Assembly (NCBI GenBank): GCA_938045815.1
Contig: CALIBI010000001.1
Span: forward strand, 4,111 to 68,110
Origin: an uncultured Sulfolobales archaeon
Lineage (GTDB): Archaea > Thermoproteota > Thermoprotei_A > Sulfolobales > NBVN01
DNA: 64,000 bases
Direction: 5' to 3'
Part shown: positions 8,813 to 60,615 of the stretch, in pieces
Layout of the letters: each line of letters starts with the position of its first letter
How positions within the stretch are numbered: the stretch's first letter is position 1
The notes under the pieces: model-generated
What the model was told of the DNA's origin: nothing
What the model saw: only the letters and a program-made list of their open reading frames with translations
Database searches by the model: none
Program-made: the position numbers and the translations under genes

Positions 8813-9505
8813 TTGAGTAACGTGAGTAGGTTAGGACTGATCGCTTTGCTAGATAAGATGATCTCACAGTCTGAGATTATTGAGAAGTCTGGTACGAAGT
8901 ACGTGCTCAAAAGCTTCACGGGAGAGAAGTCATCTTTCAAGTGGTTTCCTTTAAGCACTTTTTTAAGCTTTATTTACCCATTTACGTACGACCCTAACGA
9001 AAGGTTAGAGAGAGAATTAGTTTTCTTCGGTCACGAATGGAAATACTTCAAGACACCTAAGATAGTTGAAGTCGATAAGGAGAACCATAAAATATTGCGT
9101 GAATACGTAGATGGTAGGATACTAGACACAGATATTGACGCAAACAAATTAGGTAAAGTCTTGGGGGAGATCCATAAGGAAGGTTGGGCATTAGGAGACG
9201 TGAAACTAACTAATTTCTTGATAGGTAGTAACGACTCAATATACGTTATAGACGCGGAGCAAGCCATATCTAAGGCGGAAACACAGCATATGGCTTGGGA
9301 CTTATACTTAGTTCTCCTAATAGCTAGCTACGCGTACATAAAATCACCCACTAAGTTTGAGGGATTCCTAGAGGATTTCTTATCCGGCCACGATGGCGTT
9401 TGCAACTGTAGAGAAATTTATGAAGGGTTCAATACGCCGAAGCTCCAAAGCCTCCTGATCCTACTTCCCCCTTCTCATCTTCTTAAGCTGGCTAAGGTGC
9501 TCTGA
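8813..9505 (+). CDS. Atypical Ser/Thr protein kinase-like protein (Bud32/RIO-like fold)
   Basis: VLKSF lysine, REYVDG hinge, LGDVKLTNF catalytic loop, IDAEQA Mg-binding loop. Confidence 0.75.
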   Translation: MSNVSRLGLIALLDKMISQSEIIEKSGTKYVLKSFTGEKSSFKWFPLSTFLSFIYPFTYDPNERLERELVFFGHEWKYFKTPKIVEVDKENHKILREYVDGRILDTDIDANKLGKVLGEIHKEGWALGDVKLTNFLIGSNDSIYVIDAEQAISKAETQHMAWDLYLVLLIASYAYIKSPTKFEGFLEDFLSGHDGVCNCREIYEGFNTPKLQSLLILLPPSHLLKLAKVL

Positions 9506-9594
9506 GTGCTTAAGTCATTGAATCTAATTGATGAAAGTCTTAAATATTTATTCGCTTCACATAAGAATTCTTATAGTGTAGGAGGGGTTCACAG

Positions 9595-10524
9595 TTGCTT
9601 GAAAAAAGACTTTACTTAATCATCCTGGTCTGTGTTGTTTTACTGTTGTCGGGAAGTCTAACACCCCAAGCTTCTGGTGACGTAAAATATACTTACGTTC
9701 TTTACCCTGACGGTCACGCTGACATTAAGGTTGTGTGTAATGTGACTGGAAGAGAAACTCTTGAACTCAGACTTGAGAAGGGATACATAGATATGACTAT
9801 CACTGTTTTCGCAGATAGTGGGACACCGTTACCTTACGTGTTAGAGCCTGATGGGAGGATAATCATCAACACTAGCCACCTAAACAATGTGACTATAGAG
9901 TATGAGGCAGTTGTAGGGGATGTTTTCGCTGAAGTTCAGGTCAACGTTCTCATAAGTCCGCTAGGTCCTGCAGACGTGATACTACCGCTTAATTCAGCTC
10001 TCCTATACTTTAGCGGCTCACCACAAGTATTCACGATCAGTGACCCGACAGGTAAGAATTTCTACATAGTTCTTAGTTACGATAAAGCAGGTACGTACGA
10101 GATAAGCTTTCTACTACTTCCTCGTGCAGAGACTCCTACTGAGACACCTAGTTCTCAAACAAGCCCTACACCCGAGAGTGTGGGGGTATCGACTACACTC
10201 ATTCTAATCTTAGTGGGTGTAGCAGCCGCGGCTTTACTAGGATACTTCATCATGAGGAGGAAGCTCGAGAAAGAAACCGTGATAGAGCCTCTACTAGAGC
10301 AAGGCTTTGACGAGCGGGATAAAGCGATTCTTAAAGCACTAGGTAGTGGAGAAGCTACCTTATCGGACTTAAGCAAAACAGTAAGACTCAACAAGTCTGT
10401 TGTTTGGAGAAGATTAGAGAGACTCAGAGAGCTAGGATATGTCGAGAAAGGTTATTCAAGAGGTAAGTCCGTGTATAAGCTGACACAGAAAGGACTGAAA
10501 ACCCTTAAAGATTTAGGTGATTGA
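9595..10524 (+). CDS. Membrane-tethered transcriptional regulator (extracellular domain, TM, cytoplasmic wHTH; COG2512-like)
   Basis: Signal peptide, T/P/S linker, TM, then wHTH (TLSDLSKTVRLNKSVVWRRLERLRELGYVEK). Confidence 0.8.
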   Translation: MLEKRLYLIILVCVVLLLSGSLTPQASGDVKYTYVLYPDGHADIKVVCNVTGRETLELRLEKGYIDMTITVFADSGTPLPYVLEPDGRIIINTSHLNNVTIEYEAVVGDVFAEVQVNVLISPLGPADVILPLNSALLYFSGSPQVFTISDPTGKNFYIVLSYDKAGTYEISFLLLPRAETPTETPSSQTSPTPESVGVSTTLILILVGVAAAALLGYFIMRRKLEKETVIEPLLEQGFDERDKAILKALGSGEATLSDLSKTVRLNKSVVWRRLERLRELGYVEKGYSRGKSVYKLTQKGLKTLKDLGD

Positions 10525-10533
10525 AGAGAATCT

Positions 10534-11522
10534 CTACGGGTTCCAGTTTTTCTTGGTATGCGGTCTCTCAAGCATGTCTTTTCTTCTCACTAACACTTTC
10601 GTTAAGTCATTACTCCTACTAGCTGGTTGCCCTCCTCCTAGGAGACAACCCCCTGAACACGCCCAAAAACTATCTTCTTGGGGGATCTAGCACGGTCTGA
10701 GAGAGCCTGCTTCAGATTCTTAATTTCATTAACTACTACCGCACCTTCCTCCCAACCTAATACCTAGTTCCTCAGTACTTAGTTCATTTATGAGTGACTG
10801 AAGCTCACGAGTAGTTGGTGAATTCACAAAGATTCTCCACGAGAGACGCTGTATTATGTAGATAGCGTCTTAAGGCATTCTTGGTGTGATTAGGTGTATA
10901 CTGTATTCGGGAACACTCCTACTGAGTATTGAGAACTCCACGAGAGATTCAGCCAGAATACCATTCTCCGCGATATTCTTGGCTTCACGCAGGTTTGAAT
11001 ATATGAATACCTTCGAGAAACCAATTAACCTGAGAGCAGAGATTATTTGCCCGATTCAAGATTCTCTGACCCCATAAGTGACGCTAGTGCTTCAGGCTCT
11101 ATATAGGCCGCCCTAAAGAAACCCTCACGAACCTTACCTAGCAGATCTTTTACTTTAGTTTAAAGACCTACAACTTCAACAAGACAGTGAGCAAAACAAA
11201 GTCCACAATTAACGCAACCAGCACTTTCTAGGGGTTCTTGATACGGCGTAGAAACGGTTGTATCTCTCTGAAAACGTAGTTTAGTGCTCTAACACCTACT
11301 AACGAACAAACTTCAACACACCTACCACAAACAACGCACTTAGACGTATCTATCTCGGTAAGTGACACTAATCCTAAAACTATCTCTATCGACTTTGCTG
11401 AACCTCCCGATACTAATACTGATTAGGTTGCTGCTAGCTAGATCCTCCAGTAACCTAACCAATTCGTTAGTGTTTATTGGGCACCCTCTGACGTAGTAGC
11501 CCGTCTTAACATAGTGATTTAC
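10534..11522 (-). pseudogene. Disrupted hybrid hydrogenase gene: [NiFe] small-subunit C-terminal fragment + 2x[4Fe-4S] ferredoxin + [FeFe]-hydrogenase H-domain homolog
   Basis: Manual translation across frames gives YVKTGYYVRGCPIN (11440-11522), CVVCGRCVEVC (11306-11338), CVNCGLCFAHC (11184-11216), GKIISALRLIGFSKVF, PTTREL (~10801-10818) and WACSGGCLLGGGQP (10624-10665). About 5 frameshifts plus in-frame stops at 11160-11162 and 10870-10872. Confidence 0.82.
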
Positions 11523-11976
11523 CTGTTAATCAGGTTTTCCAGAATTTCAGTAGTTATTGGTTCTACAAGTCTCAGCGTGGAGGGCATGTCTGTCTTTACG
11601 TCATCAAATATTACCTCACGTATTCTTGAGTTCGGTTCCGCTCTAAATAAACACGGAAGTACTTTCTCTAAGTCTCTCAGAAATTTTGAGTAATTCACTG
11701 TACTCAGTCCTTACCTCAACTCTAGTAACTTCCTCAACATATAATGCTATGAGTTTTCTTAGAGCTAAATCCGGCTCATCGATCTCGATTAATATGTTGA
11801 TGTTATCTAGTTCTTCCTGAGTGTGTGGCACTAAAGTTATTTTGGAGCAATCAAAAATCAGACCGACTTCATCACCGGGGTCTCACACCTATAGAGTCCG
11901 CCCACTTCTTAGGTATGACTACAGATAATGACTCTTTACCTACTAAGCCAACCTTCTTAATTATCTTCTCGGTCAC
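11519..11976 (-). pseudogene. Truncated, frameshifted AbrB/MazE-domain PhoU-type regulator
   Basis: MTEKIIKKVGLVGKESLSVVIPKKWADSIGVR / PGDEVGLIF...EPDLALRKLIALYV. Frameshifts at a C4 run (~11877-11880) and at ~11645; truncated at ~11520. Confidence 0.72.
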
Positions 11977-12067
11977 AGAGTCCAACCCAGTTAACGTTTG
12001 TTATCTGATCTTAAAGTTCTTCTTTTATTTATAAATTTCATTTACAAGATATTGTTGGTCGATAATA

Positions 12068-13282
12068 GTGAAGCAACCAACTCTTAACTATAACGTGATT
12101 CTAGATGACTTATCTGGAGAAAAAGCTTTTCAGTACATCTCGCGTGCTCGAGAATTAGCATCCAAGGGTTTTAACGTGATATCATTTGGGGTCGGTCAAC
12201 CAGACATACCTACACCTCAATTCCTAGTAGACGAAGGTAAGAAAGCTCTTGACGAGAGATTCACAGGATATACGGAGACTGAAGGAATTAAGGAATTGAG
12301 AGACGCTGTAGCAGAGTACCTCAACACACGCTACGGGAGCGACGTAAGGTCTGATGAGGTCGTGATAACTGCTGGTACTAAGGGTGCAGCATACCTAGCT
12401 ATGGCTGCTTACTTAAAGCCTAGTGACGAAATCATCGTGACAGACCCTACCTACCCAGTCTACTCTGAACTATCTAAGTTTCTCGGCGCTAGGCCTGTTT
12501 ACGCACCACTGAAATGGTTGGGTGAAGAGTCCGGATTCTCTCTAGATATAGACGCAATACATGAATTAATAACAAATAAGACTAAAGGCATAGCTATAGT
12601 TAACCCACACAATCCTACGGGAGCAGTCTTTAGTAGCAGGGAGGTAGAGAAACTTATGGACTTGGCTAGAGACTATAACCTCCTAATAATAGCTGATGAG
12701 ATCTACGATAACTTCCTCTACGAAGGAGCTGATTTCAAGTCCTTCATTAGTTTTCCTGACTGGAGAGACCACGTGCTTTATTGTAATGGGTTTTCCAAAA
12801 CTTTCTCCATGACCGGGTGGAGACTAGGCTACCTAGTCGCTAGGCGAGAAGTAACTAAAGCCCTCACTAAGCTAGCAGTGAATACCTGGTCTTGCCCACC
12901 ATCAATAGCTCAGAAAGTCGGTATTAAGGCTTTAAGAAGTGACTGGAGCTTCGTTCGAGAAATGGTGTCTTTATTTGACAAAAGAAGGATAACGTTATGC
13001 AGAGAATTAAAGCGAATTAAAGGATTTGAAGTATGGTGTGGTAAGGGAGCTTTCTACCTATTCCCGAGAATCTCGAAAATTTTAGAGGCTGCTGGATTAG
13101 GTGTGGAAACCTTCGTGACTAACTTAATGGAAGAAAAACACGTAGTAGTACTTCCCGGAACAGCTTTCCCAAAAGAATTCGGGAAAGACTTCATTAGGTT
13201 TAGTTACGCTATAAGTGAAGAAAAGATAGTAGAAGGGGTTAAGAGAATACGTGAGTTTGTAGAAGAGATAACCTCAAAATAA
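12068..13282 (+). CDS. Aspartate/aromatic aminotransferase, class I/II
   Basis: FGVGQPD, NPHNPTG, ADEIY and GFSKTFSMTGWRLGY (PLP lysine) motifs. Confidence 0.95.
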   Translation: MKQPTLNYNVILDDLSGEKAFQYISRARELASKGFNVISFGVGQPDIPTPQFLVDEGKKALDERFTGYTETEGIKELRDAVAEYLNTRYGSDVRSDEVVITAGTKGAAYLAMAAYLKPSDEIIVTDPTYPVYSELSKFLGARPVYAPLKWLGEESGFSLDIDAIHELITNKTKGIAIVNPHNPTGAVFSSREVEKLMDLARDYNLLIIADEIYDNFLYEGADFKSFISFPDWRDHVLYCNGFSKTFSMTGWRLGYLVARREVTKALTKLAVNTWSCPPSIAQKVGIKALRSDWSFVREMVSLFDKRRITLCRELKRIKGFEVWCGKGAFYLFPRISKILEAAGLGVETFVTNLMEEKHVVVLPGTAFPKEFGKDFIRFSYAISEEKIVEGVKRIREFVEEITSK

Positions 13283-13320
13283 TTGATAGAATTAATAAGT
13301 AGATACTTAACTTAATCTAT

Positions 13321-13384
13321 TTTTGGATGAAGAAAGCCAGGTGCTACGGAACCTAATGAAGAGAGAACCCCCGACTGACCAAAA
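13321..13384 (+). ncRNA. C/D-box guide sRNA
   Basis: C ATGAAGA 13327-33, 13-nt guide, D' CGGA 13347-50, C' ATGAAGA 13356-62, 12-nt guide, D CTGA 13375-78, closed by a 6-bp terminal stem TTTTGG/CCAAAA; intergenic. Confidence 0.78.
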
Positions 13385-13523
13385 TAGTTTTTAGAGCATC
13401 TCCTACCCAAGATAATCAGCGTCATTACACAGAGCCCCCACTAAGGAGGACAGCGAACGAAGGAATTCACGCCTCGCAAGCAGTAAGCAGAAACAAGTAG
13501 AACAAATTAAAGCTACTAACGCC

Positions 13524-13709
13524 CTAATAAGGACAGATTTTCCTTGGCTTAGATCTCCTGCATCTGTTTTTGTTGTTAGGATTTATGTAATAGCTTATAG
13601 CTTCTCTTATGATTTCAGACCTGTTCTTACCACTCCTAAGAGAGTAAATATCTACACACTCAATCAGTTCTTCAGGTAACCTAACAGTAATAGTTTTCAT
13701 GTGATCCAC
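13524..13709 (-). CDS. Ribbon-helix-helix (CopG-like) small DNA-binding protein
   Basis: KTITVRLPEELIECVD...GKNRSEIIREAI is a typical RHH pattern. Confidence 0.8.
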   Translation of the reverse strand: MDHMKTITVRLPEELIECVDIYSLRSGKNRSEIIREAISYYINPNNKNRCRRSKPRKICPY

Positions 13710-25882: not shown

Positions 25883-26239
25883 TCACCTCGTGAAATATAT
25901 GATAATAGAGATTAAAGCTAGCAAGCCTACGTACGTCACCATGTACACACTCCAATCATTTAATACGCCATTATGCATTTGGTCCCTCAGGAACACGTAT
26001 AGTTTGCGACCAGTACCTCTTACTATACCCCAGAAGAGGTTACGTGCCGGGACATCAATAGATCTTATGATGTTCGCTGGCTCCCCACCTATGTAAGGCT
26101 CTGAGTACTCTGAGCTACTATGTGTTGTTTTCCTAGATAATGAGACGTAGATTAAATACATCACAAGAGACGAGAACGCTAACACACCACTCAAGAACAG
26201 AGTAGCTGTCCAGGGGTCTAGATTAAGTTGAGTCACCAC
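25883..26239 (-). CDS. mbhI: Membrane-bound hydrogenase subunit I
   Basis: TM - PYIGGE - HNGVLNDW - TM; position between mbhH and mbhM. Confidence 0.8.
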   Translation of the reverse strand: MVTQLNLDPWTATLFLSGVLAFSSLVMYLIYVSLSRKTTHSSSEYSEPYIGGEPANIIRSIDVPARNLFWGIVRGTGRKLYVFLRDQMHNGVLNDWSVYMVTYVGLLALISIIIYFTR

Positions 26240-26242
26240 TAC

Positions 26243-27844
26243 TCACCCACCCCAAAAAACTAAATAGCCTTGCACCCAGTAATTGAGTATCCCGTCTTTC
26301 GAGGTCGTTGCTTCCACGAAGCCTCGTAACCAGTAACTAATTATAGGTGATAATAATCCTGTTATCAAGCACGCAACACTCAGTACTAGGAGTACTGCTA
26401 AGGGTAGTCTACTAGTTCTCACGAATTCTCTCTTAGGTATTATGAAGAATACTGAGTAGAGTAATCTAACGTACCCTAAGAGTGAAACAGCTGAAATAAT
26501 GTTTATGATTACTGAGATGTAAGGCGCTCCTGCCTCGAGATAGGAAACATAGAGCAGATACTTACTGAAGAACCCTCCGAACGGCGGGATACCTAATAAC
26601 TGAAGAACACCCGTTATTAGCACGATACCTAGTACAGGGTTTTTCCTAGCTACCCCACCCAACTCATCAAGTTTTCTTGTCCCTCCAGCCATGTATATTA
26701 TCACGCCTGACGCGAGGAAGAGCAGAGACTTACCTATGCTGTGGTTTATTAAGTGGTAGAAGGCTCCGGTAAGTCCGTCCACGAACGCTTGTGAATCTGG
26801 TCGAGATATGAGGGAAGAGCCTATAGAGAGTCCTATCAAGACCAAACCAATATGGCTTATCGTCGAATATGCAAGCAACCTCTTAATATCGTCCTGCACA
26901 ACCATCATGAAAGCTCCTATCAGTCCTGAAGCAAGTCCTAAAATAAGCGTTACTAGTAGTATCATGTCTCTTAAGTCACTCATTAAGGAGAATGGGTTAA
27001 ATATCGTGTAGAAGAATCTGAAGATTGCGTACACACCAACATTCACTACAAGACCTGATAACGCAGCTGAGACAGGAGTTGGTGCTTCAGGATGCGCGTC
27101 AGGGAGCCAGAAGTGGTTAGGGAATATCGCTGACTTGAAGGTAAAAGCCCATAACGATAAAGCTAGAGCTACTGCTGTGGCAGCATATATCTGACCATAG
27201 TAAAGACCTGAAACTAGGTTATGACCCCAGAACAGTGTTACTTTATTCGTTAAGTCAGCCATGTTGAGCGTCCCAAAGGAAGCATAAATGAAAACTAACG
27301 CTATGAAGTAGATGGTCGTGGCTACGGCTCCGAACAACCCGTACTTTATGGCTGCTTCAATAGCTTCCGGCTTATTTCTGTGGAAACCTACTAGAGCGTA
27401 AGCACTGATAGACATCACTTCAAGCATAACAAATAGGTTGAAGGCATCGCCAGTGTAGATGCAACCAAGCATCCCTACCTCAAGACCTAAGAGTAAGGTG
27501 TAGTAGTACGGTGCATCCTTTAAACTCCTGATATACCACGCACTATACAGCGTTATCAGGAACATTACTGAAGCAGTTAGTAAAGCTATGAGAGAGTTTA
27601 TCTCGTCTATCTCGTACGATATACCTATTGGAGGCCACCAACCACCAAAAGGATAAGCTTTAGGTCCTTCTCTAACAACTATGTTAAAATTATATGCTGC
27701 TACTATTAACGCGTACAGTGAGGTAATGGACGCGTACGCGTGGAAGAACCTAATATTCTTTATGATCATCCCTAACAAAGGTAGCACGAAAGCAAGACCT
27801 AAGAGTGAGGGAACCAACACACCTATGCTTAGGTAATACATCAC
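26243..27844 (-). CDS. mbhH: Membrane-bound hydrogenase subunit H (MrpD/NuoM-like antiporter subunit)
   Basis: DAFNLFVMLEVM, FKSAIFPNHFWLPDAH, KRLLAYSTISHIG, GIPPFGGFFSK. Confidence 0.92.
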   Translation of the reverse strand: MMYYLSIGVLVPSLLGLAFVLPLLGMIIKNIRFFHAYASITSLYALIVAAYNFNIVVREGPKAYPFGGWWPPIGISYEIDEINSLIALLTASVMFLITLYSAWYIRSLKDAPYYYTLLLGLEVGMLGCIYTGDAFNLFVMLEVMSISAYALVGFHRNKPEAIEAAIKYGLFGAVATTIYFIALVFIYASFGTLNMADLTNKVTLFWGHNLVSGLYYGQIYAATAVALALSLWAFTFKSAIFPNHFWLPDAHPEAPTPVSAALSGLVVNVGVYAIFRFFYTIFNPFSLMSDLRDMILLVTLILGLASGLIGAFMMVVQDDIKRLLAYSTISHIGLVLIGLSIGSSLISRPDSQAFVDGLTGAFYHLINHSIGKSLLFLASGVIIYMAGGTRKLDELGGVARKNPVLGIVLITGVLQLLGIPPFGGFFSKYLLYVSYLEAGAPYISVIINIISAVSLLGYVRLLYSVFFIIPKREFVRTSRLPLAVLLVLSVACLITGLLSPIISYWLRGFVEATTSKDGILNYWVQGYLVFWGG

Positions 27845-27853
27845 CTCACCACC

Positions 27854-28369
27854 TCAGTCAAAAATTCTTTTAGCGAATCTCTCAAAAACTTCTGAGACAT
27901 GCTTCCTCGCCTCAGCAGATTCCGTGGCAACCGCGTTTATCCAGTGAACGTAGAAGGCTTTCTCTTCGGGAAACACGTCAACCACCACAGTACCGGGGGT
28001 GTTAGTTATTGAGTTGGCTATAGTCAGCATAGCGTAATCACTCACAACTTCGTAAGGGACCTTAACTATGCCTGGGTTTATGGGCATTTTAGGGTGTAGT
28101 ATCCTTCTCATTACGTCTAAGTGCGCTCTAACCTCATCTACGAAGAAATATCTTATAGAGTATATGAGGAGCCAGCCAAGCCTCCATACCTGAATTAACT
28201 TGCTGGGATTACTTATAACGAGGTTAGCAGTTATTACTGATGTTGCTAAAGCTACTAGGACCCCAGTAATTAAGTCATAAGCTGATACAGACCCGGAAAA
28301 CACTACATAAATTATAAAAACCAGGAAGAAAACCCCCAAAACCTTACCTACGAACCTCACTTGAGTCAC
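27854..28369 (-). CDS. mbhA: Membrane-bound hydrogenase subunit A (MnhE-like)
   Basis: PINPGIV, ANSITNTPGT, YVHWI. Confidence 0.88.
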   Translation of the reverse strand: MTQVRFVGKVLGVFFLVFIIYVVFSGSVSAYDLITGVLVALATSVITANLVISNPSKLIQVWRLGWLLIYSIRYFFVDEVRAHLDVMRRILHPKMPINPGIVKVPYEVVSDYAMLTIANSITNTPGTVVVDVFPEEKAFYVHWINAVATESAEARKHVSEVFERFAKRIFD

Positions 28370-28785
28370 CCCCTCAACCTAGCTACTCTCCTAACATCTG
28401 TTGTTCCATAAAGTCTGTAGACTTGTAGCGTGAGGAAGATTAAGAATAGTGTGACAGCAAGACCTATAACTATGGCTGTTAAAACTAGTGCTTGAGGTAG
28501 TGGGTCTACAGCTCTGTTAATGAATCGTATCAGGTCCTCGCTTGTTGGTTCAGTGCTAGTTATAACTGGAGGTATAGGTGGTTGTTCTGGTGACGGCCAC
28601 CCCCTATAACCCACAATTATAGCTAGGACATTAGCGGTATCTGAGAATATTGTTAAGGCGATTATCTTCTTTATTAGACTTGGTCTTGCAAAAATACCGT
28701 ACAATGATATGCCTACGTTAAAGAAAAGACTAAACAGCAAGATATTAAACAAGAATGTGTTTAGTTCATTCATACGTCTCACCAC
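28366..28785 (-). CDS. mbhG: Membrane-bound hydrogenase subunit G (MnhC-like)
   Basis: LIKKIIAL, VDPLPQALVLTAIVIG. Confidence 0.9.
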   Translation of the reverse strand: MVRRMNELNTFLFNILLFSLFFNVGISLYGIFARPSLIKKIIALTIFSDTANVLAIIVGYRGWPSPEQPPIPPVITSTEPTSEDLIRFINRAVDPLPQALVLTAIVIGLAVTLFLIFLTLQVYRLYGTTDVRRVARLRG

Positions 28786-29602
28786 TAATAAAACTCTTGA
28801 CTACCTCCTCAGGCATGGAAAGTAATATGAAAACCAGTGTAAACTCACCAGCCACCGCCAGATACTCAAAAATATTGAGGAAGAATAGTGAACCACTTAT
28901 TAACGTGCCTGAGATTTGGGCTGGCAGACCTACGGGTGCGTCAAATTTAGGCTGGTTCTGAAAAACATAAGCGTTAAGCCCTGTGAGCAGCCCTATAAAG
29001 ACAGCCGCTAGAGTAGTCAAGTATATTCCCAGAAGGCCTGCTGTCCACAACATAAACATGGGTTTCTCAGAAATACCCCTACTAAGTAAGAAATACACTG
29101 AGAAGATCACTAGAACTAAGAGTGGAGCTACCGCTGCGGCAGAACCTCCTTGGAATCCTCCTCCATGTGTTAGGTGACCGTGAAGCGCTATAGAAGCACT
29201 TACCGCGATTATTAGTGGTGTTAATAATCTAGCTGCAGTCTTACTTATCAGACTTAATCCGTAATTGTTGTCTTTATTGTTTGCGTTGTTTAAGACACTC
29301 TTAAGTGTTACACCTCTCATCAAAGTTAGCGCACCAACTACAGCTAGAAAGAAAACAGCAGTTTCGAATAGTGTATCAAGACCTCTATAATCCCAGACTA
29401 TAGCCGCGACTGCTACGGGGCTCATAGCTGTGAAATTAGTGTACTGCGGATTCAGTGTCGTGTAGAGATACCAGGAAGCTAACATCCTAACTCTAGGTAA
29501 TGGGAGCGGATAATAACCTAAAGCACCTCTAGCAAACGCTAGTGAGAACGTGAGAACCAATAATATTAAACTACCCAGCACTAAGAGTTTCTTAATCCTC
29601 AC
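28766..29602 (-). CDS. Membrane-bound hydrogenase subunits E+F fused (MnhB-like)
   Basis: VAAIVWDYRGLDTLFE (E part) and HGHLTHGGGFQGG (F part) in one ORF. Confidence 0.85.
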   Translation of the reverse strand: MRIKKLLVLGSLILLVLTFSLAFARGALGYYPLPLPRVRMLASWYLYTTLNPQYTNFTAMSPVAVAAIVWDYRGLDTLFETAVFFLAVVGALTLMRGVTLKSVLNNANNKDNNYGLSLISKTAARLLTPLIIAVSASIALHGHLTHGGGFQGGSAAAVAPLLVLVIFSVYFLLSRGISEKPMFMLWTAGLLGIYLTTLAAVFIGLLTGLNAYVFQNQPKFDAPVGLPAQISGTLISGSLFFLNIFEYLAVAGEFTLVFILLSMPEEVVKSFISGETYE

Positions 29603-29882
29603 TTGCTACCACCTCATTCGAATCATTCTCAGTTCTTTCAGTTTTCTTTATCAGAAAAAGAACTGCTGCAGGGTACAAACCCACAGATACTGGTATATAA
29701 ACCAAAGCTATGTCAGGAGCCATAAGTAAGTAGAAAAGTATAACGTATGTAGTACTTTGTATCGCAGATAAAACTACTGCCTTAATTAAGTTACTTTCTA
29801 GAATAGCCAAATATGTTGCGACTAGTGATACGACTCCTGTCATAGCCATAAACAAGTAAGTCAATGTACTTAATTCTATCAT
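29592..29882 (-). CDS. mbhD: Membrane-bound hydrogenase subunit D (DUF4040-like)
   Basis: NLIKAVVLSA...LLMAPDIAL. Confidence 0.82.
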   Translation of the reverse strand: MIELSTLTYLFMAMTGVVSLVATYLAILESNLIKAVVLSAIQSTTYVILFYLLMAPDIALVYIPVSVGLYPAAVLFLIKKTERTENDSNEVVASED

Positions 29883-30268
29883 TCCTTCCCACCCTCCCTA
29901 AACTTCTCCTTCAAAGCATCGTGAATTAACGGGTAGGGAATTGCTGCTTTAGACCTGTAGGAAGCTCTGGCTAGTGCGTGAGAACCTACGGGACCTAAAA
30001 GCAGTATCAGCAAAGCAGTCACTGCTGCTCCTCCTGTAACGAACCATCTGTGTGTTCCTAACTCAACGTAGCCAGCAGCGAAGAGAGCGGCTCCAATTAA
30101 TGGGACGAAAGCTCCCCATATAGTTCCTACTGTAGCAGCATGTAGCCTCACAAAAAAGTTAGGGAATCTTAGTAGTCCTATAGACCCTGTAAGGTCTGCT
30201 ATGGCTCCTACTACTATCATTAGAGTCCCTGCGGCCATTAATATTTCATTAATAAGTTCCTCTACCAT
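29879..30268 (-). CDS. mbhC: Membrane-bound hydrogenase subunit C (MnhG-like)
   Basis: IGLLRFPNFFVRLHAAT, PVGSHALARA. Confidence 0.9.
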   Translation of the reverse strand: MVEELINEILMAAGTLMIVVGAIADLTGSIGLLRFPNFFVRLHAATVGTIWGAFVPLIGAALFAAGYVELGTHRWFVTGGAAVTALLILLLGPVGSHALARASYRSKAAIPYPLIHDALKEKFREGGKE

Positions 30269-30270
30269 AA

Positions 30271-30552
30271 CTACTCACCCATCTCTCTAGACTCAAGATA
30301 CTTAGCTACATAAATATCTAGAGCAAATACCCATAAAGCCAAGACCATAGCTACAGCTATTAGGATGGGGGAATGAAAGAGTATACTTAAGATAGTTATG
30401 AAAGCTGCTAAGTCATAACTCATAGAATCTATAGCTAACACGCTGTCAGGTATCGTAGGTCCTTTAACAGCTCTCACTGAGTACAGCGCGAAAGCTGTTA
30501 AGTAGATAGGTATTACCCAGAAGACTACTGATAAGTAGAGCTCAGAATTCAT
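30271..30552 (-). CDS. mbhB: Membrane-bound hydrogenase subunit B (MnhF-like)
   Basis: GPTIPDSVLAID, AKYLE. Confidence 0.88.
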   Translation of the reverse strand: MNSELYLSVVFWVIPIYLTAFALYSVRAVKGPTIPDSVLAIDSMSYDLAAFITILSILFHSPILIAVAMVLALWVFALDIYVAKYLESREMGE

Positions 30553-30953
30553 TAAACACCACCAGCCGCCTTAGTAGTGGTTGATAAAGAAAGCTCGCTA
30601 GATTCTACGATTGTTGAAGAAGCAAGTCTGTACTCATTAGTAACTAAATACGCATTTACCGGACACACGGTAACACACCTATAACAGAAAACACACCTGA
30701 AATAGTCGACTACTGGATATATCCTCCTAGCATTAGTCTTAGGTGCTACATACTCATCAGGGATTTTAGTCATTGTTATGGCGTTCGCAGGACACTCTAC
30801 AGCACAGAGGGAACAACCAATACACTTCTTCAGATCCGCGTACTGTCTCCCCCTAAAATCTGGTTCTATGAGTGTTTGTTCTTTAGGGTACTGTATAGTT
30901 ACTGGCTTAACGAATATCCCCTTAATAATCTCCTTAATCAGACCCGGCCTCAC
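30552..30953 (-). CDS. mbhN: Membrane-bound hydrogenase 2x[4Fe-4S] subunit N (NuoI-like)
   Basis: PVTIQYP, CIGCSLCAVECP, CVFCYRCVTVCP. Confidence 0.9.
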   Translation of the reverse strand: MRPGLIKEIIKGIFVKPVTIQYPKEQTLIEPDFRGRQYADLKKCIGCSLCAVECPANAITMTKIPDEYVAPKTNARRIYPVVDYFRCVFCYRCVTVCPVNAYLVTNEYRLASSTIVESSELSLSTTTKAAGGV

Positions 30954-32152
30954 TTCCTAACACCTCCCAACTCCTTCAGAGGTACCTGATACCTGACACC
31001 TCTTCTTAAGTCTGTGATCACCGCTCTCTCCATGCAAGATATGCAGGGGTCGAAACTCCCCAGAATAATCGGTACGTCAGCTATCATCTGATCAACGTAA
31101 GTAAAAGCAGAATTAACTATGTTGTTTAGTGATGGGGTTCTTATCTTGACTCTATACGGTTTATCACCACCAGAACTACTGACATAGTATGTTAACTCAC
31201 CTCTAGGAGCCTCGACAGCCGCGTAAGACTCACCAACAGGGAACCTTCTAGGTAGTTTTCTCTCGTCAGGTACTGGATTACCTTGAGGCAGATGCGTTAA
31301 GATGTACCTCACCATATTTATAGACTCGTAGAGCTCCCCGAATCTTACCATAGCTCTCGCGTAGCTATCACCGTAATCCTCCGTAATAACATTGAACGGT
31401 ATATCGCCGTAAGCATCATACTTATCCTGAATTCTAATATCTGTTTTAATGCCAGAACCCCTAACCACAGGTCCTACTAAAGAATATGCTAGTGCTTCCC
31501 TAGGCTTTATCCTGCCCGTATCCCTCAGTCTTCTATTGATCGTCACGTCCTCCTGAAAGATCTTATGATAATATTTTATTCTCTCTTCAACCCTCTTAAT
31601 AATATCCAGTATCCTAGAAGTCTTTACCTCATCAATATCTCTCCTAACACCACCAACCATCATGTAATCAGCCATTACCCTCTGCCCAGTCAGTATCTCC
31701 TTAGATTTCATCACGTATTCTCTATCCTTCATTAAGTACATAAATAAAGTTTCGTATCCAGCAAGCTCGGCTGTTACAGCTAGTACGAGCATGTGGCTGT
31801 GAAGCCTCTCTAACTCCATCGAGAGAACTCTCAAGTACTTAGCTCTAGGTGGTGGATCTACGTCAAGTATGTATTCAAGCGCTCTCACGTAGCAGTTTGT
31901 GTGAACAGCATTACATATACCGCATACACGCCCAATTATGAATATATCTCTGTAGAAAGTGTTCTTCTCGGTCAGCTTCTCTATACCTCTATGGTTATAG
32001 CCCGTCATAACGTCTACCTTGATTATTCTCTCCCCATCCGCGTAAAGCTTCAGTAGTAGAGGCTCGTGTAACGCTGGGTGTTGAGGACCTACAGGTATCT
32101 CAACAGCCATAGGTATCTCGATCAGATGTGTGACTTCAACCATCTCAAACAC
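30950..32152 (-). CDS. mbhL: Membrane-bound [NiFe]-hydrogenase large subunit (group 4)
   Basis: GPQHP, HRGIEK, both Ni-binding motifs intact (RVCGIC, DPCISCMER), C-terminal extension after the Arg. Confidence 0.93.
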   Translation of the reverse strand: MFEMVEVTHLIEIPMAVEIPVGPQHPALHEPLLLKLYADGERIIKVDVMTGYNHRGIEKLTEKNTFYRDIFIIGRVCGICNAVHTNCYVRALEYILDVDPPPRAKYLRVLSMELERLHSHMLVLAVTAELAGYETLFMYLMKDREYVMKSKEILTGQRVMADYMMVGGVRRDIDEVKTSRILDIIKRVEERIKYYHKIFQEDVTINRRLRDTGRIKPREALAYSLVGPVVRGSGIKTDIRIQDKYDAYGDIPFNVITEDYGDSYARAMVRFGELYESINMVRYILTHLPQGNPVPDERKLPRRFPVGESYAAVEAPRGELTYYVSSSGGDKPYRVKIRTPSLNNIVNSAFTYVDQMIADVPIILGSFDPCISCMERAVITDLRRGVRYQVPLKELGGVRK

Positions 32153-32600
32153 CTGAGTCTTTCCTTAGCGGGTAGATATCTTTAGATGACACGTCCGCGG
32201 GAACAAAGAAAGATCTCCTTAGGTAGTTATTCCCATCAAATATTATTCCTAGTAGGTCGTAAGTCTCTAGCTCACCTGCCAGAGCACCGGGAACTAAGTC
32301 AATCACTGACGGTATGATTGGGTTTTCTCTAGGTAGGTAAGCTCGAATAACTAGGTATGTGTTGTGTCCGAACACATTAACGAAGTAATCAATACGTATA
32401 AGGTTTTTCTCAGGGAAGTCCGTGCCTTCTATGGTTGCGAGGTAGTAAGCTTCCCTGTCTAGAGTCTCAGACAATTTACTGAATACCTCCCTAATCTTGC
32501 TTGCCTCCACCTCAATAACTACTCTGTTAGGCTTCATGGTGTAGGAGTTAATCACGTATTCCTTAAGAAAATCAACCAGATTTAGATTCGTTACCATCAC
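32145..32600 (-). CDS. mbhK: Membrane-bound hydrogenase subunit K (NuoC-like)
   Basis: IPSV, ELETYDLLGIIFDG, YPLRKD. Confidence 0.88.
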   Translation of the reverse strand: MMVTNLNLVDFLKEYVINSYTMKPNRVVIEVEASKIREVFSKLSETLDREAYYLATIEGTDFPEKNLIRIDYFVNVFGHNTYLVIRAYLPRENPIIPSVIDLVPGALAGELETYDLLGIIFDGNNYLRRSFFVPADVSSKDIYPLRKDSGV

Positions 32601-56672: not shown

Positions 56673-57749
56673 GTGTCATTAACAGGTCTTTATGTAGCTA
56701 GGGCTGATAGCTTAGGGATTCTTTTTAGTGAGTTGAGGAGATTAGGTTACGTGATTGTAGGGTATAGGGTGGTTGATGGGGTGTTAAGGCTTGAGGAGCT
56801 AGATTCTTTTGATGAGTTTGCTCATAATGTGGAGGACATTCAGAGCCCTGGTAAGTACTCGTTAGTTAGTGGTGGTTTCTATAGGCACGGGCCAGACTCG
56901 CCTAAAAGGTTTCTCTACCCGCCTACTCTAACTCTCTTCAGAGTTTCTAAGGAGTGGGTTGCGAGTACTCCGACGTATGAGGAACGTAATCTCGCGTTTT
57001 TTGGTTTAAAGCCTTGTGATTTAGCATCTATTAAAGTGCTTGATAGGGTTCTCTTGGGTGTTGACGAATATTACACGAGTCTTAGGAGGAATTTAGTTCT
57101 CGTAGTAGAGAATTGCACTAGTCCTGGTGGAACATGTTTTTGTAGTACCATGAATACGGGACCTAGAGCTAGAGACACTTTTGACTTAGCATATACTAGG
57201 CTAGGTGATAAGCTTGTGCTGGAGGCTGGTAGTGAGCTGGGTTTAAGACTCCTTGACGTTCTCGAGGTAGAACCCATTGATGATGCTACGTACGAGAGAT
57301 TTGAGGTAGTGATGCGTAACGCTAGTGAGAAAGCTAGAGCAGGGTTTGAACTAAACGGATTGCCTGAAGAACTTGAGCTACGTATAGAGTCTAAGGTTTA
57401 TAAAGAGGTTACTGAGAGGTGTCTCGGTTGCGCGAATTGTAACATGGTTTGCCCAACATGTTTTTGTTTCGATGTGCTTGACACCCCCTTAATCGACGGA
57501 TCTGCTGAGAGAGTTAGGGTGTGGGACGGTTGCTTGAACTTTACTTACGGTCAGGTAGCTGGAGGTCATTTCAGACCTGACTTGTGGGCTAGGTACAGGC
57601 ATTTCGTTCTCCACAAGTTTGCTTACTGGATAAAACAGTTCGGCACATACGGGTGTGTAGGGTGTGGTAGGTGTATTACCTGGTGTCCTACAGGCATAGA
57701 CTTGAGAGAGACCGTGAAGAAAGTTCTGAGAGGTGGTAAGGACGGGTAA
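56673..57749 (+). CDS. hyhB: Group 3b soluble hydrogenase beta subunit (Fe-S)
   Basis: KPCDL, CFCS, CLGCANCNMVCPTCFC, CVGCGRCITWCP. Confidence 0.93.
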   Translation: MSLTGLYVARADSLGILFSELRRLGYVIVGYRVVDGVLRLEELDSFDEFAHNVEDIQSPGKYSLVSGGFYRHGPDSPKRFLYPPTLTLFRVSKEWVASTPTYEERNLAFFGLKPCDLASIKVLDRVLLGVDEYYTSLRRNLVLVVENCTSPGGTCFCSTMNTGPRARDTFDLAYTRLGDKLVLEAGSELGLRLLDVLEVEPIDDATYERFEVVMRNASEKARAGFELNGLPEELELRIESKVYKEVTERCLGCANCNMVCPTCFCFDVLDTPLIDGSAERVRVWDGCLNFTYGQVAGGHFRPDLWARYRHFVLHKFAYWIKQFGTYGCVGCGRCITWCPTGIDLRETVKKVLRGGKDG

Positions 57750-58572
57750 GAATATGACTACTCTAACCCCTCTTAAAGCTCTAATAACTCGTGTGAGGAC
57801 CGAGACTTGGAATATTAAGACGTACTACGTGAAGTTACCTGATGAGGCTAAGTTACCTAAGCCAGGACAGTTCAACATGCTCTACATACATGGAGTTGGT
57901 GAAGTACCTATATCTATCAGCGATTTAGATGAGGAGTCTAGGATTGCTGCTCACACAGTTAGGTTTGTTGGTTCCGTCACCAAGACTTTCGAGTTACTTA
58001 AGGAAGGTGATATAATTGGGTTTAGAGGCCCTTACGGCATCGGATGGCCTATGGATGCTATGATCAACAAAAACATAGTCTTAATAGCTGGCGGGATCGG
58101 CCTACCCCCCTTAAGACCCGTAATAAGAGAGGTAGCTAGGAATAGAAGCGCTTACGGCAAGCTAATCATTCTTTACGGAGCTAGAACTCCTGAAGACCTC
58201 CTCTTCACCTACGAGTACAGCGACTACGAATCAATCCCTGACACAGAGTTCTACGTTACCGTGGATAAGCCTAGCGAGGGTTGGAAAAACAACGTAGGCT
58301 TTGTGACGAACCTAATAAAGTACGTGGACGTTAATCCCAGCGAGTCTTACGCGTTCGTGTGCGGTCCTGAGATAATGATGAAATTCGCTACTCAAGAGTT
58401 GCTTAAGAGGGGGTTCAAAACAAACAAGATCTACTTGTCTCTCGAGAGAAGAATGAAGTGTGGTGTTGGTTTATGTGGTCACTGTCAGATGGGTCCATAC
58501 TTTGTTTGTAAGCACGGTCCTGTATTCCCCTTATGGTTCATAAGTAAGTACTTTTGGGTTGATCAGATATGA
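57733..58572 (+). CDS. hyhG: Group 3b soluble hydrogenase gamma subunit (FAD/NAD(P))
   Basis: PGQFNML, GEVPIS, GGIGLPP, ERRMKCGVGLCGHCQ..VCKHGP. Confidence 0.93.
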   Translation: MVRTGKNMTTLTPLKALITRVRTETWNIKTYYVKLPDEAKLPKPGQFNMLYIHGVGEVPISISDLDEESRIAAHTVRFVGSVTKTFELLKEGDIIGFRGPYGIGWPMDAMINKNIVLIAGGIGLPPLRPVIREVARNRSAYGKLIILYGARTPEDLLFTYEYSDYESIPDTEFYVTVDKPSEGWKNNVGFVTNLIKYVDVNPSESYAFVCGPEIMMKFATQELLKRGFKTNKIYLSLERRMKCGVGLCGHCQMGPYFVCKHGPVFPLWFISKYFWVDQI

Positions 58573-59336
58573 GGAAGCTTAGAGTAGCTGTTTATAAGTT
58601 CTCTAGTTGTGATGGGTGTCAGCTACAGTTCCTAAATCTAGAAGATGAGCTGCTAGAGTTGAGTAACTTCATAGAGTTTGCTTTGTTTTATGAGGCTAGG
58701 AGATTCGTTGGTTCAGGTCCTTACGACGTAGCTTTCGTAGAGGGTTCTATCTCAACACCGCACGAGGTTGAAGTTATCAAGAAGGTTAGGGAGGAGTCTA
58801 AGATCGTAGTAGCTATAGGTGCTTGCGCCACTTCCGGCGGGATACAGGCTCTCCGTAATTGGGCTAATGAAAAGGAGTATAAGCTGTACGTTTATCCGAG
58901 ACCTGAGTGGATAGAAACACTTAAGTACGCGGAACCCCCATCAAAGTACATTAGGGTTGATTACGAGATACGTGGTTGTCCGGTTAGTAAGGAACAACTA
59001 CTTTCTTTTGTTCTACAACTGCTTAAAGGTAAGATACCTACACTGCCTGTTGACTCTGTCTGCGTGGAGTGTAAGAGGAGGGGGAATGTGTGTGTCTTGG
59101 TTGCGAGAGGGATTCCTTGCTTAGGCCCTATTACTATGGGGGGTTGCGGTGCTTTGTGTCCTTCGTATGGTAGGGGCTGTTACGGGTGTTACGGCCCCAT
59201 GATAGACCCTAAGCCGGAGGTTTTGAATGCGTGTTTTAAGGAGTTGGGTCTCAAGCCTAAAGAAATACAGCTTCTTTTCAAGCAATTTACTAACTGGTCT
59301 AAGGAGTTTAGGAGGGTGATTGAAGAGTATGAGTAG
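58569..59336 (+). CDS. hyhS: Group 3b [NiFe]-hydrogenase small (delta) subunit
   Basis: SCDGCQ, GACATSGG, RGCP, CVEC...CLGP...CGA.CP. Confidence 0.93.
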   Translation: MRKLRVAVYKFSSCDGCQLQFLNLEDELLELSNFIEFALFYEARRFVGSGPYDVAFVEGSISTPHEVEVIKKVREESKIVVAIGACATSGGIQALRNWANEKEYKLYVYPRPEWIETLKYAEPPSKYIRVDYEIRGCPVSKEQLLSFVLQLLKGKIPTLPVDSVCVECKRRGNVCVLVARGIPCLGPITMGGCGALCPSYGRGCYGCYGPMIDPKPEVLNACFKELGLKPKEIQLLFKQFTNWSKEFRRVIEEYE

Positions 59337-60615
59337 GGTTATTAAGGTAGACTACTTAGCTAGGGTTGAGGGGGAGGGTAGTCTATTCGTCGAGTTAGAG
59401 GATGACAAGGTTTCTAGAGTTGAGTTAGGTATTTTCGAGCCTCCAAGATTTTTTGAAGCGTTCTTAAGAGGTAGGAAGTATTATGAGGTCCCTGACATAA
59501 CTGCTAGGATTTGCGGTATATGCCCTGTAGCATACATAATGAGTTCTAGTAGAGCGTTAGAGAAGATACTAACTGTTGAAGTACCTGAAGAGATAGAGAA
59601 GCTTAGGAGGATAATATACCTCGGCGAGTGGATTGAGAGCCACATGCTCCACGTCCTCATGCTACACGCGCCAGACTTCCTAGGGTATGAGTCTGTTCTG
59701 AGTATGGCTAAAGACCATCCAGAGATAGTCAAGAAAGGTTTGAAGGTGAAGTGGTGGGGCAACCAAGTAATTAGGGTTGTGGGCGGTCGCTCAATGCACC
59801 CGGTTTCTTGCAGAATCGGTGGTTTCTACAGAATCATTAGGAAGGAAGAGTTACTCCCGTTACTGAAGGAGTTGAATCACGTGAAAGAGTGCGCGAGGAA
59901 GTTGTTGGAGTGGGTGCTGGAGTTACCTATGCCTGACCTAAGAAGAGAAACAGAGTTCGTGTCGCTTAGGGGTGAAGGCGAGTACCCGATACTTAAGGGT
60001 AGAGTGCTCTCTAGTAAGGGCCTCAATATATCTGAGGACGAGTTTGAAGATAATCTTATCGTAGAACAAACAAAGTATTCAACATCACTTAGGTACAGAC
60101 TTAAGGGTAGGGGTTACTACATCGTAGGTCCTCTCGCAAGATACAACAACAATTACGACCTCCTAGACCCTGAGGTTCGTAGTGTTGTGGAGTCTCACGG
60201 TTACGGCGCCCCCCTACATAACAGTTTCCAATCAATAATAGCTAGAGCTGCTGAAGTATATCACGCGGTCTTAGAACTAGAGGAACTAATTAATAGTTAT
60301 AGGGAGCCTCAACAACCTTACGTGGAGGGCGTAGTAAGGGGAGGTGCGGGTGCAGCAATAACAGAAGCTCCTAGAGGTATGCTGTACCACAAGTACGAAA
60401 TAAATGAGAGAGGATACGTAGTTGACGCCAACATAATACCACCAACCTCACAAAACCTAGCAAGCATAGAGCAAGATCTTCTAGCACTAGGTAACAAGCT
60501 AGCAACACTGAACCCAACAGACGCACAGTGGCTAGCAGAACAAACAGTCAGAAACTACGACCCATGTATATCATGCTCAACACACTTCCTCAAAATAAAG
60601 TACATCAACAAATAG
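59320..60615 (+). CDS. hyhL: Group 3b [NiFe]-hydrogenase large (alpha) subunit
   Basis: RVEGEG, RICGICP, DPCISCSTH plus a short cleavable tail. Confidence 0.95.
   Translation: MKSMSRVIKVDYLARVEGEGSLFVELEDDKVSRVELGIFEPPRFFEAFLRGRKYYEVPDITARICGICPVAYIMSSSRALEKILTVEVPEEIEKLRRIIYLGEWIESHMLHVLMLHAPDFLGYESVLSMAKDHPEIVKKGLKVKWWGNQVIRVVGGRSMHPVSCRIGGFYRIIRKEELLPLLKELNHVKECARKLLEWVLELPMPDLRRETEFVSLRGEGEYPILKGRVLSSKGLNISEDEFEDNLIVEQTKYSTSLRYRLKGRGYYIVGPLARYNNNYDLLDPEVRSVVESHGYGAPLHNSFQSIIARAAEVYHAVLELEELINSYREPQQPYVEGVVRGGAGAAITEAPRGMLYHKYEINERGYVVDANIIPPTSQNLASIEQDLLALGNKLATLNPTDAQWLAEQTVRNYDPCISCSTHFLKIKYINK

Follow-up and report, generated by a model that had tools for sequence, protein, structure and literature searches.

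A relic of a hydrogenase operon with a HyhS-HydA-like fusion gene in a Zestosphaera genome

The window locus and the described hydrogenases

Archaeal hybrids of the two main hydrogenase types have been described as group F [FeFe] / group 3f [NiFe] enzymes, in which a fusion of the [NiFe] small subunit HyhS with the [FeFe] subunit HydA occurs together with HyhL, HydB, HydC and HydD (Greening et al., Cell 2024, PMC11216029). A second system, the electron-bifurcating NiFe-HydABCSL (NiFe-Bfu) of Acetomicrobium mobile (Feng et al. 2022, PDB 7T2R, PMC8880783), has a HydA without the H-cluster motif, and a [4Fe-4S] cluster (A5) occupies its place. We analyzed a 64,000-nucleotide stretch (the window) of contig CALIBI010000001.1, from a Zestosphaera (Desulfurococcaceae) genome deposited as an uncultured Sulfolobales archaeon (GCA_938045815.1), which carries the remains of a HyhS-HydA-like fusion gene on its minus strand. 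The intact orthologs of this gene resemble group F in having a [NiFe] small-subunit domain at the N-terminus and, fused to it, a HydA-type domain at the C-terminus, in the contiguous hydC, hydB, hydD and hyhL, in the CxxxC of the third H-cluster motif (L3) and in their occurrence in Thermoproteia, whereas the copy in the window is a dead gene that has lost its partner genes to deletion. We consider it highly probable that window 10534-11976 (minus) is, as a whole, best explained as a non-functional relic of a hydrogenase operon.

The first-pass annotation had proposed a fossil gene hidden from the open reading frame (ORF) track, and all of the peptides it quoted were indeed located on the minus strand at 10534-11522, spread over three frames with stops between them (Table 1). 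No ORF of more than 46 amino acids (aa) covers the fusion-remnant peptides, and none of more than 62 aa lies in 10525-12067, between the two intact genes. The intact ortholog from genome G004 matches the remnant region by tblastn at E 5.9e-59 and 1.1e-40, and these values, together with the matches of the stitched fragments in congeners described below, place the fusion remnant far from chance. In a codon-level alignment with the ortholog sequence L001, the intact codons show 70% aa identity. On the DNA, the HydA-like part directly continues the tail of the small-subunit domain, whose proximal-cluster motif is also found in the window's own HyhS, at 58947. In the ferredoxin-like remnant, which the family profile aligns to HydA residues 120-265 of 8a6t_A and 7p5h_A, both CxxCxxCxxxC motifs are legible, at 11338 and 11216. 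The H-like remnant contains GFSKVF (11005-11046), ESLVE as the equivalent of the first H-cluster motif (L1), IIQRLSW as that of the second (L2; 10837-10857, with the invariant Cys changed to Arg), TTREL (10792-10818) and the L3 motif ACSGGCLLGGGQP at 10624-10665.

Counted by codon alignment against the closest ortholog, that of G004, the fusion remnant carries nine disabling lesions, in keeping with the earlier estimate of at least seven: a 5' truncation at codon 108, five frameshifting deletions (2, 4, 1, 20 and 1 bp near 11366, 11262, 11053, 10763 and 10664, respectively), two premature stops, and the loss of the native stop codon, because of which the remnant ends in a read-through tail. 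The 2-bp deletion lies just upstream of the 2x[4Fe-4S] remnant and the 4-bp deletion separates its two cysteine motifs. In addition, three invariant residues are replaced (C335R, Y221H and P223L). Deletions make up six of the seven small indels in the fusion and abrB-like remnants together; such a deletion bias is usual in prokaryotic pseudogene decay. Programmed frameshifting or an alternative genetic code was also considered and rejected, given five shifts of differing size, TAA stops, the absence of the 5' third and of the partner genes, and the loss of an invariant Cys.

The partner genes were lost in a single event. Compared by blastn with the G004 locus (L013), the window gives two clean blocks, 9540-11522 matching L013 8429-10433 and 11523-13379 matching L013 15705-17572, and therefore a single deletion of 5,271 bp separates the two. 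The removed interval holds the 3' half of an abrB-like gene, hydC, hydB, hydD, hyhL and codons 1-107 of the fusion gene, so that the contiguous hydC, hydB, hydD and hyhL of group F are missing from the window locus. The end that the first-pass annotation assigned to the fossil, 11522, is exactly the deletion junction; we found no convincing microhomology at 11522/11523. The abrB-like remnant is cut off at this junction and carries frameshifts of +1 (~11880) and -2 (~11647); its G004 ortholog contains Pfam MazE_antitoxin. Both flanks of the relic are syntenic with G004, where the complete operon fills exactly the interval missing in the window, and the loss thus took place in situ in the window lineage. 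The earlier claim that this lineage carried and lost the gene holds in that respect, but it was the whole operon and not a single gene that went, through the 5,271-bp deletion. An ancestor of this Zestosphaera genome had the hydrogenase operon between the helix-turn-helix (HTH) and aminotransferase genes, where congeners retain it. One deletion joined the abrB-like gene, at codon ~162, to the fusion gene, at codon 108, and both stumps afterwards decayed under relaxed selection by small indels, two nonsense mutations and the replacement of invariant residues.

Two other explanations of the lesions were weighed. If they were assembly or sequencing artefacts, the organism would really have an intact gene or operon, and the genome is indeed a metagenome-assembled genome of 72 contigs. 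However, a Logan contig of the public marine-metagenome run X1 spans 10400-12200 with 3 substitutions and 0 gaps at a word depth of ~10.7, and thus a different assembly reproduces every indel and the junction, as expected from the first-pass view of decay rather than sequencing error. This confirmation is at the contig level and X1 may be the sample behind the genome assembly, points that count in favour of an artefact. Nine lesions in the fusion remnant, three in the abrB-like remnant and a 5.3-kb deletion sit between intact flanking genes, invariant residues are replaced, the window branch shows an excess of nonsynonymous substitutions (dN), the nearest relative, G001, has an even larger deletion at the same locus, and a six-frame search of the window's own genome with the stitched sequence found no second copy of the fusion gene; an artefact is accordingly very improbable. 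We give just as little credence to the idea that the fragment was never functional here, having arrived by horizontal transfer as part of a foreign operon before it decayed. The operon locus differs between G003 and G004, and hence the operon is mobile within the genus, but the relic flanks are colinear with G004, whose complete operon occupies the missing interval, and the copy closest to the relic is the congeneric one of G004 (69% aa identity), consistent with the flanking genes.

The pairwise dN values place about twice as much change on the window branch as on the G004 branch. Purifying selection acts on all three domains of the intact copies, with omega of 0.05-0.38 (0.10-0.28 in the H-like domain). 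The relic and G004 have an overall dN/dS of 0.19, a value that is useless for dating the loss because most of the divergence predates inactivation, and only the ~2-fold dN excess is informative. The three substitutions that separate the window from the X1 contig (G>A at 10931, C>T at 10953 and A>G at 11743) all fall within the pseudogenes and represent strain variation or a consensus difference.

Table 1. Features of the relic and its flanks in the window.
Feature	Position	Strand	Basis or remark
Pseudogene, codons 108-442 of HyhS-HydA-like fusion plus read-through tail	10534..11522	-	blastn, codon alignment, tblastn
Last ~27 codons of [NiFe] small-subunit (Oxidored_q6) domain, including proximal-cluster motif YVRGCP	11442..11522	-	ortholog domain limits
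2x[4Fe-4S] ferredoxin-like (HydA F-domain) remnant	11184..11353	-	Fer4_7 E 4.4e-8 (stitched fragment); profile alignment
Shortened HydA H-like domain remnant	10534..11160	-	Fe_hyd_lg_C E 0.0022, 18.1 bits (stitched); ortholog fold
VNHYVKTGYYVRGCP	11478-11522	-	peptide located
IDTSKCVVCGRCVEVC	11306-11353	-	peptide located
AGCVNCGLCFAHC	11184-11222	-	peptide located
IISALRLIGFSKVF	11005-11046	-	peptide located
PTTRELQSL	10792-10818	-	peptide located
WACSGGCLLGGGQP	10624-10665	-	peptide located
Premature stop TAA, ortholog Lys230 (AAG)	11160..11162	-	codon alignment
Premature stop TAA, ortholog Gln327 (CAA)	10870..10872	-	codon alignment
Junction of 5,271-bp deletion relative to G004	11522..11523		blastn vs L013
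Pseudogene of AbrB/MazE-domain gene, ~codons 12-162 of 307	11523..11976	-	tblastn, three frames, E 2.4e-47; codon alignment
Intact flanking gene, 309 aa, winged-helix HTH	9595..10524	+	syntenic neighbour of fusion gene in G004
Intact flanking class I/II aminotransferase gene	12068..13282	+	syntenic neighbour of operon's other end in G004

Intact orthologs and their operon

The stitched 333-aa sequence was searched in six frames against 60 related genomes. Uninterrupted frames of 437-492 aa were found in seven of nine congeners (Zestosphaera, Desulfurococcaceae) with 47-69% identity and E values down to 7e-145, and intact frames also occur in several further genera of the family and order, while the window's own genome gave the same match with 7-13 internal stops. 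In congeners, the stitched fragments matched intact frames of 451-470 aa at E 1e-120 to 1e-145, and the ortholog of the seven congeners measures 442-470 aa. Public records name these orthologs 'hypothetical', '4Fe-4S binding protein' or 'F420-reducing hydrogenase gamma subunit'. The closest ortholog, from G004, has 442 aa and contains Oxidored_q6, the [NiFe] small-subunit proximal-cluster domain, at 13-134 (E 1.1e-21), a 2x[4Fe-4S] domain (Fer4_7) at 163-228, and homology to HydA from ~143 to the end. The [NiFe] small-subunit domain and the HydA-type module thus stand in one ORF, which establishes the fusion: as the first-pass annotation had it, a single gene combines the small-subunit domain with 2x[4Fe-4S] and H-like domains of the HydA type, and the small-subunit fragment does not belong to a separate gene.

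The HydA homology could not be read from family models, and these results weigh against the assignment. In the Pfam search for Fe_hyd_lg_C (PF02906) that the first-pass annotation had suggested for the repaired protein, the stitched fossil scored 18.1 bits and the C-terminal ~210 aa of the G004 ortholog 21.5 bits, both below the gathering cut-off of 22.1 bits; separate fragments gave Fer4 matches only, with Fe_hyd_lg_C at E 0.25, and a six-frame PF02906 scan of the whole window genome had no match. Nine of 33 family members reach Fe_hyd_lg_C E<=0.01 (best 2.8e-8). Because the Pfam results are below threshold, the homology had to be shown by a profile search against PDB sequences and by fold comparison, and family hidden Markov models alone would miss the relic. 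A profile of the 33 family members matched the bifurcating [FeFe] HydA of T. kivui and T. maritima (8a6t_A, 7p5h_A) at E ~1e-33, and the match is colinear through the ferredoxin domain, the first H-domain strand-helix up to GFDKVF, TTREL and the L3 motif CPGGCxxGGGQP. With an AlphaFold2 model of the G004 ortholog (predicted local distance difference test score, pLDDT, 79.8), Foldseek ranks 1-49 were all [FeFe] hydrogenases (E 4.5e-17 to 1e-11, probability 1.00), with a template modeling (TM) score of ~0.5 when normalised to the whole 442-aa query. The relationship to HydA that the motifs had suggested is thereby borne out.

Six genes of the same orientation lie in G004 between the orthologs of the two genes that flank the relic, and the fusion gene is the last of them. 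The order is abrB-like, hydC, hydB, hydD, hyhL, fusion, and the same content was seen in G003 and G017; from hydC onward this is the group F layout of Greening et al. 2024, in agreement with the kinship to archaeal hybrids that had been suggested for the fossil, and the genes correspond equally to those of NiFe-HydABCSL. The G004 genes encode an AbrB/MazE protein of 307 aa, HydC (NuoE-like, 189 aa), HydB (607 aa), HydD (236 aa) and HyhL, which has 370 aa as called in G004 and 423-426 aa in G017 and G003. HydB of the relatives is of the NuoF/Bfu type, with Complex1_51K, NADH_4Fe-4S and a C-terminal 2x[4Fe-4S] part (Fer4 at 553-605), and matches 7t2r_B, the B subunit of A. mobile NiFe-HydABCSL, at E 1e-201; HydC contains 2Fe-2S_thioredx. 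HyhL has all four Ni-Fe cysteines, in RICGICSHAH and DPCIPCAVH (G003 and G017 copies), with Pyrococcus sulfhydrogenase I alpha as its closest match (E 6.5e-38) and 7t2r_D at 7.6e-27.

The archaeal operon shares with NiFe-HydABCSL the HydB and HydC subunits, a group 3 [NiFe] large subunit and an Fe-S subunit that derives from HydA but lacks an H-cluster motif, and its small-subunit part consists of the proximal-cluster domain only, as in the 179-aa A. mobile HydS. It differs in that HydA is split: the N-terminal 2Fe-2S/His-[4Fe-4S] part is found in HydD, fused to the C-terminal Fe-S tail of the small subunit, and the 2x[4Fe-4S] and H-like part sits behind the small-subunit domain, so that there is neither a free-standing HydS nor a single-chain HydA. 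The large subunit is also nearer to the Pyrococcus sulfhydrogenase than to A. mobile HydL.

Residues 23-145 of G004 HydD (L013 12039-12749) match the N-terminus of HydA (2Fe-2S and His-[4Fe-4S]; 7q4v_A 6-130), and residues 138-201 correspond to 9nez_A 161-225, the Fe-S part at the C-terminal end of the sulfhydrogenase small subunit. Judging from these sequence matches, HydD looks like a reciprocal chimera of the fusion protein, and the pair resembles a domain swap between hydA and hyhS; the modelling templates used by Greening et al. (7T2R chain A and 5ODC chain E) imply that those authors had already seen this swap. Ahead of hydC, both G004 (L013 15269-16192) and G003 (L014 15181-16104) encode a 307-aa protein that begins with an AbrB/MazE (SpoVT-AbrB) domain. 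Found beside hydC although the operon loci differ in these two genomes, it is a candidate for a regulator dedicated to this operon.

The H-like domain of the fusion family

When 400 genomes of the phylum were scanned with PF02906 and the proteins aligned with MAFFT and placed in a tree, the H-domain proteins fell into a series of four types. Type 1 comprises unfused M3-type HydA proteins adjoining hyhL (545-562 aa; a single Cys in L1, the L2 Cys and L3 kept). Type 2 consists of HyhS-HydA fusions of 485-506 aa with PCC in L1 (PCS in L023), PCxxRK in L2 and L3 kept, and type 3 of fusions of 413-477 aa in which the L1 ligand Cys is Ser while the L2 Cys and L3 are kept. Type 4, the fusion of the Zestosphaera clade (433-465 aa), has RSPxE in L1, TQCxSW in L2 and CPGGCLLGGGQP in L3. 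In the tree, all the fusions group together to the exclusion of the unfused proteins (100/100); among them, type 4 makes up a monophyletic group (100/100) that nests with type 3. The full PCC / PCxxRK / CxxxC set is found in fusions elsewhere in the phylum (L021-L023), and the Desulfurococcaceae-type clade differs from group F by its replaced L1 cysteines, with Ser at the ligand position, and by marginal Pfam H-domain scores. Among the unfused type 1 proteins, L016-L020 (G382, G101, G169, G115 and G125; 545-562 aa) match PF02906 over its full length at E 1e-30 to 1e-42, have a single-Cys L1 (xACP/xECP) and each adjoin a hyhL-like gene, possibly a 'group G'-type arrangement.

In the 33-sequence family alignment S302, E305, C335, C405 and C409 are invariant, and no other conserved Cys was found in the H-like domain, for example between C222 and C335. 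The L1 ligand position, equivalent to CpI Cys300, is Ser (S302) in 33 of 33 relatives, and the full set of H-cluster ligands is thus lacking. The L2 Cys (Cys355 in CpI), invariant in the relatives, is Arg in the window; the L3 ligands, Cys499 and Cys503 in CpI, correspond to the invariant C405 and C409. The proton-relay position of CpI Cys299 is occupied by Arg, Val, Met, Ala or Ser in all Desulfurococcaceae-type members, and in the Zestosphaera clade Trp stands at the equivalent of Lys358. All 33 aligned intact members have an H-domain ~140 aa shorter than the canonical one, and the segment between TTREL and L3, which lines the [2Fe] pocket, is absent, as it also is in type 2. Because of the Ser at L1 and the shortened H-domain, a catalytically hybrid enzyme is doubtful; the word 'hybrid' in the first-pass annotation fits the architecture and ancestry of the protein, but probably not its catalysis. 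HydF maturase exceeded the cut-off in none of 37 relatives, a result that is undiagnostic because most archaea with active [FeFe] hydrogenases lack maturases.

We read the H-like domain, with moderate confidence and by analogy with A. mobile, as an electron relay that connects the proximal cluster of the small subunit with the Bfu core. It would hold a relay cluster of the [4Fe-4S] type, like A5 of A. mobile HydA, and no catalytic H-cluster, and the ancestral enzyme would have worked like the electron-bifurcating NiFe-HydABCSL, with the [NiFe] site of HyhL as the place where H2 was produced or cleaved. As far as sequence comparison can tell, the lost enzyme was most likely a hydrogenase of the NiFe-Bfu type rather than a dual-site hybrid. 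Some points tell against this. The L1 and L2 assignment comes from a MAFFT alignment to divergent archaeal HydA and not from structural superposition. Three of the four H-cluster cysteines (L2 and both of L3) are invariant in the family. Zestosphaera-type fusions may already have been counted as group F, given that a positive HMM (hidden Markov model) score and CxxxC sufficed in the pipeline of Greening et al. 2024 (PMC11216029); the CxxxC that this filter demands is present in the window in ACSGGCLLGGGQP. Finally, one of two tested Thermoplasmata group F proteins clearly made H2 after artificial maturation in vitro (PMC11216029).

The ancestral enzyme could instead have been a true dual-site hybrid, whose H-like domain bound a functional, if unusual, H-cluster, in which case an active [FeFe] site was lost as well. 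The H2 production of the Thermoplasmata protein and the invariant L2 Cys and L3 CxxxC-GGGQP motif suit this explanation, and so do an architecture and operon that match those given for group F, the purifying selection on the H-like domain, and a clade that the fused proteins share with the fully cysteine-equipped type 2 fusions (L021-L023). Yet the Cys300 equivalent is Ser, the Cys299 relay is replaced in all Desulfurococcaceae-type members, Trp stands for Lys358 in the Zestosphaera clade, the Pfam H-domain scores are marginal, and the A. mobile precedent shows that such a domain can hold a plain [4Fe-4S] cluster. The absence of the [2Fe]-pocket segment is no argument alone, as it is also missing from the cysteine-complete L021-L023. 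Taken together, we regard a dual-site ancestor as rather unlikely.

Returning to the relay reading, we tentatively suggest, at somewhat less than even confidence, that the Desulfurococcaceae-type fusions are a distinct, H-cluster-less offshoot of the group F hybrids, in which the [FeFe] domain has shrunk to a Ser/Cys3-ligated [4Fe-4S] relay. If true, this offshoot would link, as a living intermediate, the dual-site hybrids with the bifurcating NiFe-only hydrogenases, of which A. mobile HydABCSL is an example. As for the relic, it is a case of ordinary gene loss, a dead further member of a family first described in 2024, but it points to a Desulfurococcaceae clade of HyhS-HydA fusions whose [FeFe]-type domain lacks one H-cluster ligand and is nevertheless under selection. 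The Ser-for-Cys, truncated H-like domain of this living clade is a more interesting lead than the relic, and the clade bears on the exchange and repurposing of [FeFe] and [NiFe] modules, a question raised by Greening et al. 2024 (PMC11216029). Group F in that study comprises 21 sequences, and Desulfurococcaceae are not named in the main text of the paper, its supplementary tables lying outside the comparison.

Loss in relatives and the remaining hydrogenases

As a well-documented case of loss, the locus shows precisely the way in which a five-subunit hydrogenase operon disappears from a small thermophile genome, through one large deletion and then deletion-biased erosion, and the next stage is visible in a sister genome. 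G001, the closest relative (85% nucleotide identity in the flanks), keeps ~90 bp of the 3' end of the relic, and a further deletion of ~2.5 kb (L031, G001:C21 ~10184-10259 vs window 10617-13091) took most of the aminotransferase gene too. An aminotransferase copy, 77% identical, lies on another G001 contig. No fusion copy was found in G006, whose genome is only 81% complete. The hydrogenase module may thus be dispensable within Zestosphaera and have been lost more than once, being a fossil in the window, nearly erased in G001 and not found in G006. For annotation, no group F or NiFe-Bfu hydrogenase should be credited to the window genome. A scan of 9500-13600 at Rfam gathering thresholds returned zero RNA families, a result that carries no weight against an uncurated archaeal C/D sRNA.

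The window retains an intact sulfhydrogenase (group 3b) HyhBGSL at 56673-60615, which shares the YxRGCP small-subunit motif and a HyhL-type large subunit with the fusion operon. It differs in its free-standing HyhS of 255 aa without a HydA-like part and in its partners, HyhB and HyhG instead of HydBCD. As the window genome keeps three other [NiFe]-type large-subunit genes, the lost complex would be a fourth of this kind and not, as first proposed, a third hydrogenase. Besides HyhL (59320-60615), a large-subunit homolog is encoded by the ORF at 30950-32152 (400 aa), in a multi-gene cluster on the minus strand (25883-32600) with Fer4 proteins nearby, which is probably Mbh/Mbx- or Nuo-like. A further [NiFe]-type large-subunit homolog is present as a 572-aa frame on contig 7 (G000:C7:75647-75856).

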